Program-made: the position numbers and the translations under genes
Source: a phage
Sequence record: OZ335960.1
Length of the DNA stretch: 64,000 bases
Reading direction: 5' to 3' (one strand)
Shown here: positions 2,970 to 27,050 of the stretch, piece after piece
How positions within the stretch are numbered: position 1 is the stretch's first letter
Layout: each line of letters starts with the position of its first letter
Notes under the pieces: model-generated
What the model saw: the letters and a program-made list of their open reading frames with translations, nothing else
What the model was told of the DNA's origin: nothing
Database searches by the model: none

Positions 2970-3106
2970 AAATTTACCATACTAGTGAATGTAGTGCCAT
3001 AATAACATCAGAAATGAAAAGCACGACTTGAATTAATCCGAACATTACTCCATAATATAGTGCTACCAATAAAGTAGCAAGGGCTAATGAATAGCCCAAG
3101 ATTTTC

Positions 3107-3265
3107 TTAATCATTAGTAGATAACAACACAAATGTTAAATATGCACACATACCCTGGGCTAAAGCTTGTGAAAACACACTGCTAGCATCAATACAGATA
3201 GTTAAAACACATGCTACTATCCAACAAACAAATGAAATAACTCCTAATAATTTTGCGATATTCAT
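3107..3265 (-). CDS. small membrane protein, Ac-like paralog (52 aa)
   Basis: Internal ATG of track ORF 3107..3295 with SD GAGGAG; hydrophobic; shares ...SVF.QA.AQG motif with adjacent ac. Confidence 0.5.
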   Translation of the reverse strand: MNIAKLLGVISFVCWIVACVLTICIDASSVFSQALAQGMCAYLTFVLLSTND

Positions 3266-3275
3266 AATATTCTCC

Positions 3276-3431
3276 TCAACTATTTTTAGAACCAATGTAC
3301 GCGAATAATGATAAAATCGCTAATACGCCCTGAGCTGATGCTTGCAAAAATACTGAAGTTTCTCCAGTTATTACTGTTCCGATGCATAAAAAGAACCAAC
3401 AGAAAAAGGCTATACCGTGAACAAATTTCAT
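3276..3431 (-). CDS. ac: small membrane protein Ac (acridine sensitivity), 51 aa
   Basis: Hand-translated MKFVHGIAFFCWFFLCIGTVITGETSVFLQASAQG...; 51 aa and position directly downstream of stp as in T4. Confidence 0.5.
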   Translation of the reverse strand: MKFVHGIAFFCWFFLCIGTVITGETSVFLQASAQGVLAILSLFAYIGSKNS

Positions 3432-11882: not shown

Positions 11883-12246
11883 ATTTAATGGCTTGAAGGA
11901 GACTAATAATTCTTAAACGGCTTCTTTCATCTTTAACCGTAAAAGAAAGAGGGTCGCCAGATTTCATAGTGATAGTGCATTCAAAACTAAAATCTTCAGG
12001 AACTTCTTCGAAGAAGTCAAATTCTTCATCATATATTAGAACATTACTCTGAAAACTGTGAAGAATTTTTCCGTCATTTCCAGATGCTGTACTAATCATT
12101 GTAACATTATTACCTTTCATATCTTCAACGATAAATTCGCTTGTAGATATTACGGCATTAATAGAACCATTCCTATAAATAGAAGAAAGCAGATATTTCT
12201 TTTCTTCACCTTCACGAATGCGATATTTCTTACCGATTTTAAACAT
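11875..12246 (-). CDS. hypothetical protein, 123 aa
   Basis: Six-frame ORF; ATG at 12246 (track start is GTG). Confidence 0.5.
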   Translation of the reverse strand: MFKIGKKYRIREGEEKKYLLSSIYRNGSINAVISTSEFIVEDMKGNNVTMISTASGNDGKILHSFQSNVLIYDEEFDFFEEVPEDFSFECTITMKSGDPLSFTVKDERSRLRIISLLQAIKFE

Positions 12247-16542: not shown

Positions 16543-17862
16543 TCACACATAAAACACATCATAACGACCACGAGTGACACCAACATAAAGAAGCTGCTGA
16601 GCCAATTCAGCGTCTGCATAATGAATACAAGGCGTATAGATGAAAGCACGGTCTACAGACATGCCCTGAGCTTTATGGAATGTTGATGCAGGAAGTGCTT
16701 TCACTTTACTAAACTGTGATTTAGCATCCCAAAAATCACTCCACGGAGCTTTTCCACCTTTATTCCAATTTTTATACGTTTCTGCCGTTTTACCTAAAAA
16801 TAAGTTAAACTTATACAGCTCTTCATCAGATGAAATTATTTTAATCTTTTCACGATAATATTCATCATCGCCGTAAGTTTCTACTGTTAAATCCCAATGA
16901 CGAATTAGATATTCTCCAGAAACACCACGAGCTTTAACAAATGTTGATGTATACTCTGCTTCTATAATACGAACTAATTGTCCGTTATTAAAAATAATTT
17001 CTGACACAGGCTTTCCATCAATTTTATATGTTTTAATTAATGGTTCCTGCATTACAATAATTTCACCAACGATAAAATCTTTATCAGTTTCAAAAATCTT
17101 TTTGCGAATAATGCTATTTAACTTGTCGACAGATTTATTCGTAAATGCCATTACGCGATTTTCAAACAAATCATCTAGCGATTTTACGATTGAAAAATAA
17201 TTTACCATAAAATCGCGTAAAGCGGTATCACCAGTAAATCCACGTACTCCATGCCCGTCAACAACTTTATCATAAATCCACTTACCGTTGCGAACATCAG
17301 TAGCTACATCAATAATAGGAGCATTACTGCGTTTAACTTCAGTGAGTTCACACTGATAAAAATCTTTATGCGTAAAGAATGGACTGATATAAGCAGTGTT
17401 TTCTCCTGGGTCAACAGGTCTAATTTGCTTATTATCGCCTATTCCAATTATAGTACACCACGGCGGGATAGTTGAAAGCAGAATTTTAAATAGCTTTCTA
17501 TCATACATTGACACTTCGTCGCAGATTAATACTCTACATTTAGCTAAATCTGGTACTTCTTTTTGTTCAAAAAGAACGTTTTCTTCATATGTTACTGGGT
17601 TAATTTTAAGAATACTGTGAATAGTACTCGCTTCTTTCCCTGATAGTTTTGAAAGAATCTTTTTAGCCGCATGTGTAGGAGCTGCTAAAATAATGCCAGT
17701 TTCGCCTGTAGATATTAAGGCTTCAATGATGAACTTAGTAAGAGTAGTCTTACCAGTACCAGCAGGTCCATTAATAGTTACATGATGTTTCTTTTCTTTA
17801 ATAGCCCTCATAACTATGTTAAAGGCATTTTTCTGACCTTCTGTCAAATCATCAAATGTCAT
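16543..17862 (-). CDS. dda: Dda DNA helicase
   Basis: 439 aa as T4 Dda; Walker A GPAGTGKT, SF1 helicase motifs. Confidence 0.9.
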   Translation of the reverse strand: MTFDDLTEGQKNAFNIVMRAIKEKKHHVTINGPAGTGKTTLTKFIIEALISTGETGIILAAPTHAAKKILSKLSGKEASTIHSILKINPVTYEENVLFEQKEVPDLAKCRVLICDEVSMYDRKLFKILLSTIPPWCTIIGIGDNKQIRPVDPGENTAYISPFFTHKDFYQCELTEVKRSNAPIIDVATDVRNGKWIYDKVVDGHGVRGFTGDTALRDFMVNYFSIVKSLDDLFENRVMAFTNKSVDKLNSIIRKKIFETDKDFIVGEIIVMQEPLIKTYKIDGKPVSEIIFNNGQLVRIIEAEYTSTFVKARGVSGEYLIRHWDLTVETYGDDEYYREKIKIISSDEELYKFNLFLGKTAETYKNWNKGGKAPWSDFWDAKSQFSKVKALPASTFHKAQGMSVDRAFIYTPCIHYADAELAQQLLYVGVTRGRYDVFYV

Positions 17863-18170
17863 CGTAAATTCCCTGCAATTGGTATACTAACAATACGCCC
17901 AGTATCTAAAATTCGCCGATATAATCTTTGCGTGTCTACATCAGGCTTAACATGTTTAACTTCTATTTTATTAAACCAAAACTTGCGTGGAGTCTCAACT
18001 AATCTCGGAATTCCCATACCTAAAGCTAGTCGATACTGCTCTTTAAGAGTGGTAAATACTTTATCAGCAATCTCCCTTTCAAAAAATACAGCAGGGCGAT
18101 GTTCATCAAGCGGAACTGGCACCGCAAATCCATCTTTATCTCTATACACTATCGCATATACATAAAACAT
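17859..18170 (-). CDS. hypothetical protein, 103 aa (dda.1 position)
   Basis: Six-frame ORF. Confidence 0.5.
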   Translation of the reverse strand: MFYVYAIVYRDKDGFAVPVPLDEHRPAVFFEREIADKVFTTLKEQYRLALGMGIPRLVETPRKFWFNKIEVKHVKPDVDTQRLYRRILDTGRIVSIPIAGNLR

Positions 18171-22457: not shown

Positions 22458-22703
22458 TTATTCACCAGTTACTTTCCACAAATCTTCGTTTGCAGCAATC
22501 CATGCATCACGTTGATTTTCTTCGTATACTGTAGTATATGCTGCTTTTTCTGAAGGGAATATCTGATAATGAGCGCCAGAAATTTTGTGAACGTCAGAAT
22601 AAAGAGGGAAAGCTACAGAAATTTCTTTTCCTTCAATTTTCTTATTTCCATCTAATTTCTGCTCAAATGTTTTAATATTAACATAACCGCGAGTACTAGC
22701 CAT
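22458..22703 (-). CDS. soc: small outer capsid protein Soc
   Basis: 81 aa; sequence MASTRGYVNIKTFEQ... as I recall Soc. Confidence 0.85.
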   Translation of the reverse strand: MASTRGYVNIKTFEQKLDGNKKIEGKEISVAFPLYSDVHKISGAHYQIFPSEKAAYTTVYEENQRDAWIAANEDLWKVTGE

Positions 22704-22775
22704 GTAATTCTCCTTTTATTTAAATTACATGACTATTTATAATAAATTCTCACAGCTTTTAAGCTGTCGTTTATA

Positions 22776-23294
22776 TTAATAACCTCGGTCTTGACGAGCG
22801 AAGTTTTCGGCATTTTTTAGATAATAAAGTTTAAAGATTTCTTCAGCCGTAAGACCGAGACTCTGGAACATGTTCAGAACGAAATGAAGAATATCAATCA
22901 TTTCAAATTTAATTTCCAACTGGTCTTGTGGAGATAAGTCAGTAATCAGAGTTTCACGACGTTCACCGTGTTGAGCTTTCCACGGCTTCCATACAGCAGA
23001 TGCATCTTTTTCGCCATTGCTCATACCACCAAGAGAAGTCAGTAGTTCGCGGAATTCATCATCAATATAATCTTTCTGATTACGCAGCCAATCAACAACT
23101 TCACCTGCGGTAGCCAAATCATCAGGATGACGGTTATATTCAGGTTTATCTTTAGCTAAACGAACCTGCAGAGATTTCTGCATATCAAGCATAACTTGCA
23201 GCGGATCTTTTTCATCACCGAGAATATCCCAGTATTCGTTTTGAGCTTTATCAGCGCCTTCAATCAGTTGTGAACATTCATTAAAGTAAGCCAT
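22776..23294 (-). CDS. 56: dCTP pyrophosphatase gp56
   Basis: 172 aa from ATG at 23294 with SD AAAGGA; MazG-like; T4 gp56 is 171 aa. Confidence 0.75.
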   Translation of the reverse strand: MAYFNECSQLIEGADKAQNEYWDILGDEKDPLQVMLDMQKSLQVRLAKDKPEYNRHPDDLATAGEVVDWLRNQKDYIDDEFRELLTSLGGMSNGEKDASAVWKPWKAQHGERRETLITDLSPQDQLEIKFEMIDILHFVLNMFQSLGLTAEEIFKLYYLKNAENFARQDRGY

Positions 23295-23365
23295 TATTTT
23301 TCCTTTCAATTCATGGGTTAGTAGATTAATTATACAATAAATATATAAAGCAATAAGGAGGACAT

Positions 23366-23566
23366 ATGGTACAAAAATTAATGGCACTTGTTAATGCCAT
23401 AAAAGGTAATAAAAGACGTATAGCTTTTACTATTTCTGCTATGGTAGGAATTTTACTTTGGAATTTTATTTTATCACCAATTGCTATTGCTCATGGCGTT
23501 AATATTCCAGTAATTACTCTTGATACATTCGTAGATTTAGCATTTGCTTTAGTTGGGTTAATTTAA
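23366..23566 (+). CDS. small membrane protein, 66 aa, plus strand
   Basis: Strong SD AAGGAGG 4 nt before ATG; two hydrophobic segments; intergenic between 56 and 61. Confidence 0.4.
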   Translation: MVQKLMALVNAIKGNKRRIAFTISAMVGILLWNFILSPIAIAHGVNIPVITLDTFVDLAFALVGLI

Positions 23567-24591
23567 ATCTTAGCATATTTAGATAGCCGCATTTTAGCCA
23601 TCAACCCTTGAGCAATATTATTTTTCATATATTCCATAATTTGTTCAGGGGTTGCACCTTCCTTTCTAATCATATCATTAACATCTTTTGATTTCCAGGG
23701 AGATTTGTCCCAAAACATAACCCTTTCTCCTGCATCAACTAATTTAGTCATTCGTTTAATAGTGTCAGGGTGACGAGGTTCATTATCTAAAACCCATACA
23801 CGTCTATCTTTAAATGGAACAATTTCTAGGTCTAATTGACCACCCGTAATAGCTATACCATTTTCAATAAAAAGTGAATCTATAGGTCCTTCTAGAACAT
23901 ATACATCACCATCTTTGACTCGTTCAACTCCATAGATTTTTGTTGCCTCAGGATAAGCTTTGATGGTAATATATTTTTGAGGAGCATCTTTCTTTAGTGC
24001 ACGTCCTTGAAAAGACTCAGCTTTTCCATTAGCGTTATAAATTGGAATAACAAGACGAGGCTCAGGTATTTCCTTTTTATATGTTCCTGGCGCTATACTA
24101 TTAACTAATTTAGGCCATTCGGTTGTAAACCAAAGATATTTCCATTTATCCTTTGGAATACAACGAGCTTTTACATATTTTATAATTGGATGGTCTTCCG
24201 CCAGTTTATCTAATCTAATGCATGACGGAAGAGATTTAATTATTTTCTTCTCAGGTTGTTTAGGAAGTTCTTTAGGTTTTTCTACTGGACGACTTTTACC
24301 TTTTTCTTTTCTTATTTCAAAGATATACTCACGATATAAATCGGGTTCAAACTCCTTTAAATATATTCCAATTGGTGCATGATAGTTACAGTTATAACAA
24401 TGAATATTTCCTTCATTATTATCACCATAATACCATCCACGGGCTTTATTTTGGTCGGTTTTTGAATCTCCACAAACAGGGCATCTAAACCGCAATTTAA
24501 AAGTTGAACTATTATTTACTTGTGTGAATTTAGGTAAATGAGCTAATGCACGGTATGCAAACTCATTATCAATCCAAGGTATTGATGACAT
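23563..24591 (-). CDS. 61: DNA primase gp61
   Basis: 342 aa as T4 gp61; zinc ribbon CPVCGDS...CYNC. Confidence 0.9.
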   Translation of the reverse strand: MSSIPWIDNEFAYRALAHLPKFTQVNNSSTFKLRFRCPVCGDSKTDQNKARGWYYGDNNEGNIHCYNCNYHAPIGIYLKEFEPDLYREYIFEIRKEKGKSRPVEKPKELPKQPEKKIIKSLPSCIRLDKLAEDHPIIKYVKARCIPKDKWKYLWFTTEWPKLVNSIAPGTYKKEIPEPRLVIPIYNANGKAESFQGRALKKDAPQKYITIKAYPEATKIYGVERVKDGDVYVLEGPIDSLFIENGIAITGGQLDLEIVPFKDRRVWVLDNEPRHPDTIKRMTKLVDAGERVMFWDKSPWKSKDVNDMIRKEGATPEQIMEYMKNNIAQGLMAKMRLSKYAKI

Positions 24592-25622: not shown

Positions 25623-27050
25623 CTAAAATTTTAATTCATTTGCCAAAGCATCTAACTGAGCTCGAGCAGATTCGTTTCTTTGATAGCGATTCTGTTCAGC
25701 CTGAATCTGTTGTGAACCTGCTACTTCGTTCACTTCAGTTGGAGTAGAATCTTGTTCAATTTCTACCCATTTCTGATTTCCTTTTTGAACACCCATTAAA
25801 AACTTATTCCATTTATTCTTATCACCATATCGTGATTTGATTTGCTTAATGAGTTGTTGTTCAGCAGCTGCTAACTCCTCGGTTTCAATGACCGCAAGCA
25901 TAAAATCAGCTGTTGCTGGAAGCCCGGCAGATTCTGCAATATCGCTCATGTTAACATCAGAAGAATCCCAAGCTTGCTTACCAACCTGTGCTGCAGTCCA
26001 AAGAACGGTTTCGGTTTCAACAGCAAGAGCACGCAATTCCTCTGCGATAGCTTTAACAGTCGTGTAACTATTTTCTGAATAAACTCTAATGCGGCAAGAT
26101 TTACAAATACCCAGATAGTCAACAATAATGATTGTTGGAACAAAATTCTTCTTGAGCTTCAATTCATTCAAGAGAGACCTGAATGTATTAGCGTCTGCTC
26201 CACCAGTAGGATACTGTTTAACGATTAAACGACCGAGAGTAGATTTCTCACGCCATTTTTCCATTTTTCCTTTATATTCAGCGTAAGAAATATGCCCATC
26301 ATCAATGTCATCAAGAGAAACATCAAGCATATTAGCATCAATACGCTTAGCACAGACTTCTTCTGCCATTTCCATGGAAATGTAAAGAACATTATGTCCG
26401 AGCTGCAAATAATCTGCTGCTAATGAACACAATCCTAATGACTTACCAACGTTAACACCAGCCATTAAAACGTTCAGTGTTCCAGTTTCAGCTCCGCCTT
26501 TAGTAATTTTATTTAGAATTTTGAGTTTAAATGGAACCTTACGAGCTTTATTCATATAAGATAGCCAACGTGCTTCGTAGTCATCCATCCAATCATGACC
26601 AACGTAACTATCAAATGAAATTGATAATGCTTGGCGCATGATGTCAGGAATAGCACCAACATCCGGCATTTTCTTATTTCGTTTTTCCGGAGGAAGCTCA
26701 GCATTAGTTTGAATTTCAATTATTTTAGATGTGGCGTTAAACATCGCCCTTTGCTGAACATATTTTTCTGTTTCTTTTACTAACCAGCTGTGGTCTTCTG
26801 GAGAATCGGCTAGTTTCGAAATAAGTGTTTTTACACCAGAATATTCTGTTTCAGTAAATGAACTATTTTCTAATGCAACATTTAACGCATTAATAGATGG
26901 AACGCTATGGTACTCATTAACATGAGATTTAATTAATTTGAATGTATTTTTAGCTGGACCACTTTCAAAATATTCTGAATCCATATATGGCCAAACTTTT
27001 GAAAAATAAGCTTGATCAAATATGAGATGAGAAAGAATAATTTCTACCAC
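25623..27050 (-). CDS. 41: replicative DNA helicase gp41
   Basis: 475 aa as T4 gp41; DnaB-like Walker A GVNVGKS. Confidence 0.9.
   Translation of the reverse strand: MVEIILSHLIFDQAYFSKVWPYMDSEYFESGPAKNTFKLIKSHVNEYHSVPSINALNVALENSSFTETEYSGVKTLISKLADSPEDHSWLVKETEKYVQQRAMFNATSKIIEIQTNAELPPEKRNKKMPDVGAIPDIMRQALSISFDSYVGHDWMDDYEARWLSYMNKARKVPFKLKILNKITKGGAETGTLNVLMAGVNVGKSLGLCSLAADYLQLGHNVLYISMEMAEEVCAKRIDANMLDVSLDDIDDGHISYAEYKGKMEKWREKSTLGRLIVKQYPTGGADANTFRSLLNELKLKKNFVPTIIIVDYLGICKSCRIRVYSENSYTTVKAIAEELRALAVETETVLWTAAQVGKQAWDSSDVNMSDIAESAGLPATADFMLAVIETEELAAAEQQLIKQIKSRYGDKNKWNKFLMGVQKGNQKWVEIEQDSTPTEVNEVAGSQQIQAEQNRYQRNESARAQLDALANELKF

Follow-up and report, generated by a model that had tools for sequence, protein, structure and literature searches.

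The interval between gene 56 and the DNA primase gene 61 of the T4-like phage in sequence record OZ335960.1 contains a 66-codon open reading frame (ORF) that is protein-coding and under purifying selection. We consider it very likely that this is a real, conserved gene that encodes a membrane protein and is independent of the neighboring methylase gene dam, which some of its relatives carry and this phage lacks. The explanation that accounts best for the observations, and that we judge quite likely as a whole, is that of a genuine gene conserved across T4-like enterobacterial phages, here lying in a dam-less junction of the T6 type, with an interval that would hold back-to-back promoters for the ORF and for gene 56.

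Here, we describe the analysis of a stretch of 64,000 nucleotides (the window), which is a segment of a Tequatrovirus, i.e. T4-like, genome. Over a 24-kb stretch, the agreement is 97.9% with Escherichia phage ECp13 and 97.7% with Shigella phage Sfk20, and a nucleotide database comparison found no record identical to it. The features of the locus are collected in Table 1.

Table 1. Features at and around the gene 56 to gene 61 interval, in positions of the window
Feature	Position	Strand	Remarks
soc	22458-22703	-	
Gene 56 (dCTPase/dUTPase)	22776-23294	-	ORF list, megablast matches ‘dCTP pyrophosphatase’, homology to T4 gene 56; left edge of the interval
MotA-type middle promoter of gene 56	23329-23354	-	Homologue of T4 P(M)16.53 (oriA promoter)
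Putative late-promoter -10, A(-13) variant AATAAATA	23336-23343	+	22 nt before ATG; within the spacer of the opposite middle promoter
Mot box ATTGCTTTA	23346-23354	-	11-nt spacer to the -10 TATAAT at 23329-23334
Shine-Dalgarno AAGGAGG of the 66-aa ORF	23355-23361	+	From the sequence; 4 nt before ATG
66-aa ORF (‘dam.1’/RB32ORF030w/RB69ORF029w family, PHROG 2024)	23366-23566	+	ATG start; predicted small inner-membrane protein
Terminator-like hairpin (ATGGCATTAACAAGTGCCAT) with T-run	23371-23400	-	Consensus scan and folding; ~165 nt past the gene 61 stop, within ORF codons 6-12
Gene 61 (DNA primase, 342 aa)	23563-24591	-	ORF list; convergent with the 66-aa ORF

A sequence-only reading of the window, made earlier, had described some 270 bp between genes 56 and 61, occupied by a 66-aa plus-strand ORF with a strong Shine-Dalgarno (SD) sequence, convergent with gene 61 and one of very few plus-strand candidates. 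This description has held up. The gap measures 268 bp and contains a single plus-strand ORF, whose stop codon overlaps that of gene 61 in the tetranucleotide TTAA (23563-23566), and in the ECp13 annotation the orthologue is the sole opposite-strand coding sequence (CDS) over the ~64 kb equivalent to the window.

On the far side of gene 56, the spacer to soc is 72 bp long in the window (22704-22775), which is the minimal form of a hyperplastic spot. Neither segF nor soc.1/soc.2 is present in the window, whereas T4 has segF between 56 and soc, and T6 has soc.2 and T6ORF029 there. We regard this region as plastic since relatives bear homing endonucleases or extra soc-like ORFs in it; soc.1/soc.2-type ORFs or homing endonucleases are found in T6, ime09 and others. 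Gene 56 is intact in the window. In the ECp13 record it is split into two overlapping hypothetical CDSs (125902-126249 and 126204-126419; extract 25902-26419), pointing to a frameshift, or else an error of sequencing, in that record.

Conservation, family and the link to the primase gene

The ORF is found in 504 phage records at the DNA level and in ~700 at the protein level, which settles the matter of conservation, whose lack the sequence-only reading had named as telling against the ORF. Purifying selection is seen in dN/dS values of 0.09-0.22 in those within-genus pairs that have enough substitutions; the close pair of the window and L012 gives 0.92, a value derived from only eight substitutions. 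Between the window and T4 there are seven synonymous and four non-synonymous changes, and the two proteins, of the same length, differ by four conservative replacements (R17K, A24T, I39V and I49V). Amino acid identity of the window protein to Tequatrovirus members is 92-98%, and to its Mosigvirus and Gaprivervirus counterparts ~50%. Between genera, synonymous sites are saturated (pS ~0.7-0.78), with dN at ~0.45.

A GGAG-containing SD sequence is kept in all genera examined, and the start is conserved. In T6 the first ATG has become ATT (extract 2232-2234, equivalent to window positions 23366-23368) and the gene is annotated from Met6 as a 61-aa protein, so that T6 translation starts either at the ATT or at Met6. 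This indicates some tolerance at the N-terminus, whose first five residues are perhaps dispensable in T6.

The protein matches PHROG 2024, a family of unknown function, with an E-value of 8.1e-31 (residues 2-66 against positions 1-65 of the 65 in the profile), and the orthologues from Dhakavirus, Marfavirus and Mosigvirus match the same profile at E 6e-26 to 3e-27. At least six T4-like genera hold orthologues. Those of Mosigvirus (RB69) and Gaprivervirus (VR25 and pEC-M719), with ~50% amino acid identity, sit at the equivalent site, where Dhakavirus dhabil, Gelderlandvirus CGG4-1 and the Klebsiella Marfavirus PWKp16 have a more divergent subtype B (MGxxFYQIWKL...FLALDxFLWNLLVVP...). The two subtypes, A and B, are joined by hhalign with a probability of 95.5% and an E-value of 1.5e-8. 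Orthologues are 65-66 codons long across six genera, and 74 in CGG4-1. In an alignment of eight sequences from six genera, residues W32, N33, P38, G44 and P48 are invariant, and the window protein has the core W-N-(F/L)-x4-P-x5-G-x3-P. Set against the rest of the dam.1 family, the window copy shows no substantive difference: length, strand, SD, upstream late-type motif and overlap with the gene 61 stop are all the same.

The annotation of the family is uneven. It is called ‘dam.1’ in RB55 (RB55_p033, the T4 twin) and T6 (AXN58073), RB32ORF030w or RB69ORF029w in RB32, RB51 and RB69, VR7ORF033w, and ‘putative transmembrane protein’ in U115. The orthologues dhabil_90 (extract 1468-1668) and CGG41_026 (1468-1692) are annotated as ‘dCTP pyrophosphatase’, which looks like a mislabel propagated from the adjacent gene 56; the true gene 56 of CGG4-1 is labeled hypothetical.

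An exhaustive search over 1.84 billion representatives added clusters from Mosigvirus and Gaprivervirus and found no relatives outside T4-like phages. Its top-scoring entries, P0032, P0033 and P0037 (1255-1822 aa), were rejected as repeat proteins that accumulate many weak stretches. A word-index protein search returned Tequatrovirus copies alone, at no less than 88% identity, and single-protein locus scans gave seven IMG/VR loci. Pfam and NCBIfam searches with the 66-aa protein gave nothing meaningful (the best was DUF6124, E 0.086, far under the cut-off), and literature searches found no published account of the ORF or its family.

The orthologue lies on the plus strand and adjoins the primase gene in T4, T2, T6, RB55, U115, RB69, VR25, pEC-M719, dhabil, CGG4-1 and PWKp16. 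It is always convergent with that gene, on the strand that the early genes do not use, and the stop codons mostly overlap; the overlap is the same 4 nt in T4, T2, T6, RB69, VR25 (second copy), dhabil and PWKp16. In PWKp16, MazG- and LprI-domain genes stand between the orthologue and gene 56, and adjacency to the primase gene is retained despite them, which links the ORF to gene 61 and not to dam or 56. At least six genera show this physical linkage of the ORF to the 3' end of gene 61, regardless of what separates the ORF from 56.

Two of these phages show a second copy. VR25 has both subtypes in tandem (extract 2995-3192 and 3201-3401), with the subtype-B copy adjoining the primase gene. In pEC-M719-6WT.2, the first subtype is accompanied by a second copy that has apparently decayed to a 119-bp remnant (extract 3193-3310), some of whose codons are still recognizable (…TSKKDKK…).

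The promoter region and a putative late element

The spacer between gene 56 and the ORF is 71 bp long. Within it the SD sequence of the ORF adjoins the Mot box of gene 56, and the late-type -10 element lies inside the spacer of that middle promoter, on the other strand. In the T4 record X01416, an equivalent set of Mot box, -10 and SD is annotated ahead of gene 56, and a GCTT(T/C)A motif, followed ~11-12 nt on by TA(T/G)AAT, is found in RB69, VR25, dhabil and CGG4-1. The T6 junction equals that of the window base for base over the 71 bp, save for three substitutions, and has the same Mot box, late -10 and SD. The leader upstream of the ORF in the window is of this T6 (dam-less) type, not of the T4 type. 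The T4 leader (ATAAATATTAATTTAA...) matches Dhakavirus; the leader shared by T6 and the window differs from it but still gives ATAAATA at a nearly equal distance.

The heptamer ATAAATA is strikingly rare: the two strands of the window together (128 kb) contain six, against ~46 expected from base composition. Four of the six sit 22-30 nt upstream of a start codon, and at the observed frequency the chance of finding one in an 11-position stretch before a given ATG is ~5e-4. These four precede the 66-aa ORF (AATAAATA), soc (TATAAATA), the endonuclease VII gene 49 (AATAAATA at 49791-49785 on the minus strand, 30 nt before the gene) and a 70-aa ORF (TATAAATA at 63398-63392 on the minus strand, 25 nt before it). 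A perfect TATAAATA is also present at 12174-12181 on the plus strand, antisense to early genes. No ORF reaching 30 aa follows within 80 nt, and the element could act as an antisense late promoter.

The element recurs in other phages. Of eight further lineages examined, seven have NATAAATA at 16-22 nt before the start of the orthologue, in flanks that are themselves unalignable. The full -10 is GATAAATA in T4 (21 nt upstream of the ORF) and U115, AATAAATA in RB69 and dhabil, CATAAATA in VR25 and pEC-M719, the canonical TATAAATA in PWKp16 and ATTAAATA in CGG4-1, so that the -13 position is off consensus in most lineages (A, G or C). In a list of 50 T4 late promoters, 32 match perfectly and the commonest variant, A at -13, accounts for nine, and T4 late transcripts have either polarity (Geiduschek and Kassavetis, PMC2988020). 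From the recurrence of a rare -10 element upstream of orthologues, together with these late-promoter statistics, we infer a gp55-dependent late gene, and we hold it reasonably probable that the 66-aa ORF is expressed late. RNA polymerase carrying gp55 would transcribe the ORF from AATAAATA, 22 nt upstream, yielding a transcript with a short leader that bears the strong SD.

The terminator-like hairpin on the minus strand within the ORF (Table 1) is present in T4 and absent in RB69 and VR25; owing to that absence, we dropped it as a conserved dual-use element. On the plus strand, no terminator is predicted in the 1.1 kb downstream of the ORF, so late transcripts would probably continue antisense into gene 61, there being, if we may speculate, no room for a terminator between the convergent genes. 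This raises the alternative that the selected function lies mainly at the level of RNA or transcription, namely late antisense transcription through the primase gene, with the peptide secondary. In dam-less phages, the promoter would then fire within the oriA/gene 56 middle promoter and help to shut off primase and origin transcription late in infection. The lack of a predicted terminator agrees with such a role, as do the position of the late -10 within the spacer of the opposite middle promoter, the unfailing convergence of the gene with 61, nearly always without intergenic space, and the finding that several T4 sites have both strands transcribed, each at its own time (PMC2988020). However, a purely antisense role needs neither the strong purifying selection on the amino acid sequence nor the conserved SD, and we consider this alternative unlikely.

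The predicted membrane protein and its possible role

The product of the conserved gene has a GRAVY score of 1.24 and a net charge of +3. Its five basic residues (K4, K13, K16, R17 and R18) all lie at positions 4-18, and its only acidic residues are D53 and D57. With no K or R beyond R18, trypsin would leave one hydrophobic peptide of 48 residues, so that the protein would probably escape standard tryptic proteomics. The two hydrophobic segments claimed by the sequence-only reading were recovered by Kyte-Doolittle analysis at residues 19-42 (mean 2.0) and 48-66 (mean 1.9); averaged over 19 residues, the profile peaks at 1.98 over 19-37, with all five basic residues N-terminal of the peak. The predicted sequence thus has the marks of an integral inner-membrane protein, i.e. 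a hydrophobic helix of at least 19 residues, a basic flank and a charge distribution that follows the positive-inside rule.

AlphaFold2, run with a 15-sequence alignment, predicts (mean pLDDT 79) an amphipathic helix at residues 2-12, a 27-residue helix at 16-42 and a helix at 52-63, with the invariant G44 and P48 in the loop formed by residues 43-51. As the C-terminal helix has just 12 residues, both a hairpin and a single pass are possible. The most economical topology in this model is N-in with a single transmembrane helix, to which a tight hairpin may be the alternative. With a single pass, the product would insert in the inner membrane with its basic N-terminus in the cytoplasm. The transmembrane helix would carry the invariant W32-N33 and P38, while G44 and P48 would form a loop on the periplasmic side, and the short acidic amphipathic C-terminal helix (D53 and D57) would sit at or in the periplasmic face of the membrane.

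Searches of Pfam, NCBIfam and PHROGs, and of BFVD with Foldseek, found no homology to a characterized protein. Foldseek returned the family itself and two marginal matches of ~63 aa, one of them from Enterobacter phage CIP9, which may be distant relatives.

Judging from the sequence, the product is most likely a small late inner-membrane protein that would modulate an envelope-associated protein of the phage or the host; as a speculation, a transmembrane modulator of this kind could act in, for example, lysis timing, envelope integrity or exclusion. To each particular function that might be proposed for the dam.1 protein we give a low probability. The Imm, Sp, RI, RIII and holin T proteins of T4, which are small, directed to the membrane or periplasm and act on the envelope, offer a working analogy only, as no sequence or family relationship to dam.1 was detected in PHROG, Pfam or NCBIfam. 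Imm and Sp are encoded in T4 by early genes, on the strand opposite to dam.1.

The orthologue in vB_EcoM_OE5505 bears the name ‘Holin’ in UniRef/BFVD, and a small protein that is predicted to span the membrane and is probably expressed late might well be taken for a holin or a holin-like lysis protein. We find this distinctly unlikely. The name is unreviewed and is carried by one entry alone, and no other holin match in the fold search is significant (E > 5). The C-terminus, FVDLAFALVGLI (...ALVGLI), does not resemble the typical charged hydrophilic tail, with no basic residue past position 18. Nor is the gene near endolysin or spanin genes, and these phages already have a T-type holin (annotated in ECp13).

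The dam cassette

The three classical T-even phages differ in what lies between 56 and 61. In T4 (NC_000866 16,270-18,963) the order is 56, dam, the 66-aa ORF and 61, in T2 it is 56, dam, a 181-aa ORF, the 66-aa ORF and 61, and in T6 (MH550421) it is 56, dam.1 and 61, without dam, as in the window. The 309-bp gap between dam and 61 is unannotated in NC_000866, although it contains the 66-codon ORF at 17,738-17,938 on the plus strand.

An empty stretch in the T4 reference annotation would suit the view that the frame is open by chance and that the interval is really a regulatory spacer, made up of the terminator of gene 61 and the promoters of 56 and dam; the middle promoter of gene 56 and the minus-strand hairpin could be read in the same way. 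We regard this as very improbable for a frame that shows dN/dS of 0.1-0.2 within genera, retains ~50% amino acid identity after synonymous saturation, and has kept its position in frame, its length, its SD and five invariant residues in six genera. The hairpin, for its part, is not conserved outside Tequatrovirus.

That dam is missing between 56 and 61, as the sequence-only reading stated, was confirmed by tblastn with T4 Dam, which found no homologue anywhere in the 64-kb window (best E 0.76); T4 SegF likewise found none (best E 7.5). On the T4 locus, used as a positive control, the same searches gave E-values of 5e-178 for Dam and 2e-155 for SegF. The possibility that dam might reside elsewhere, which had been named as counting against that reading, found no support in the window or in the complete genome of ECp13 (164,862 bp), the closest complete relative, where the best tblastn E-value was 1.7 and the record has no annotated methyltransferase. 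The methyltransferase motif (D/N/S)PP(Y/F/W) is absent from the window ORFs of 120 aa or more, and in ECp13 ORFs of that size it is found only in non-methyltransferase proteins, e.g. the neck protein gp13.

Of the 504 records with a DNA match to the interval, ~335 extend across the dam-less junction, and in the remainder the match starts only at the ribosome-binding site, which makes the dam-less state the majority state in Tequatrovirus. A T4-type Dam (at least 90% identity) is encoded in 182 records, in agreement with the dam-less share. The dam-less layout is also that of Mosigvirus, Gaprivervirus, Dhakavirus and Gelderlandvirus. We conclude that dam is an accessory cassette in about one-third of Tequatroviruses, alone in T4 and accompanied by an ORF of 181-186 aa in T2 and U115. 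On one side the cassette is bounded by the gene 56 Mot box and on the other by the SD of the 66-aa ORF; there T4, unlike the window, has dam (780 bp) and ~110 bp of upstream region. Since the stop codon of T4 dam adjoins the same Mot box, this cassette of dam and its ~110 bp amounts to a clean indel between Mot box and SD.

The companion ORF lies directly upstream of dam in U115 (extract 2352-2912), where it overlaps the dam start, in T2 (1165-1710) and apparently in many other dam-positive Tequatroviruses. The 186-aa form resembles the DpnII (GATC) restriction endonuclease family weakly and below threshold (E 0.0045); the PDB yielded no relative. In one record (Shinka) this ORF goes under the name of putative restriction endonuclease. 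A GATC restriction-modification module may be the ancestor of the dam cassette, and T4 would retain its methylase alone.

The sequence-only reading went further and held that a small membrane ORF had replaced dam and gene 69, which is scarcely credible even though dam is absent from the interval and the window and the ORF occupies most of the gap: the ORF coexists with dam in T4, RB55, U115 and T2, it is older than the split of six genera, and its dam-less setting is both the T6 state and the majority state. Gene 69 does not belong between 56 and 61. In the original 1984 T4 record, X01416, ‘gene 69’ starts at today's gene 56 start and continues through today's segF, so that it corresponds to 56 plus segF and extends to the opposite, soc side of 56. 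The proposed comparison with T4, T2 and T6 bears the earlier reading out in part, in that the ORF is common to all three and T6 is dam-less like the window, but not in its ‘instead’, as T4 and T2 have both.

As a conserved gene that is independent of dam, the feature is already catalogued and is an ordinary one: the ORF has been deposited hundreds of times as a hypothetical protein. Its annotation nevertheless has consequences. Some records mislabel orthologues as ‘dCTP pyrophosphatase’ or ‘Holin’, and because NC_000866 is without this conserved, selected and apparently late gene, omics studies that rely on that annotation miss the ORF. Whether dam is present or absent accords with how the T2, T4 and T6 genome records differ. 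It is a doubtful prospect that the product would be a late inner-membrane effector, near-universal in T4-like enterobacterial phages and concerned with lysis timing, lysis inhibition, superinfection exclusion or envelope maintenance, or that the promoter would aid the late shut-off of the origin and primase. As the sole opposite-strand gene in ~60 kb of early genes, overlapping the primase stop and abutting the oriA promoter, the gene is a tidy candidate for knockout or tagging. What interest remains lies in a conservation beside the primase gene that is near-universal, in expression that is probably late and driven from within the oriA promoter region, and in the gap that the gene reveals in the T4 annotation.
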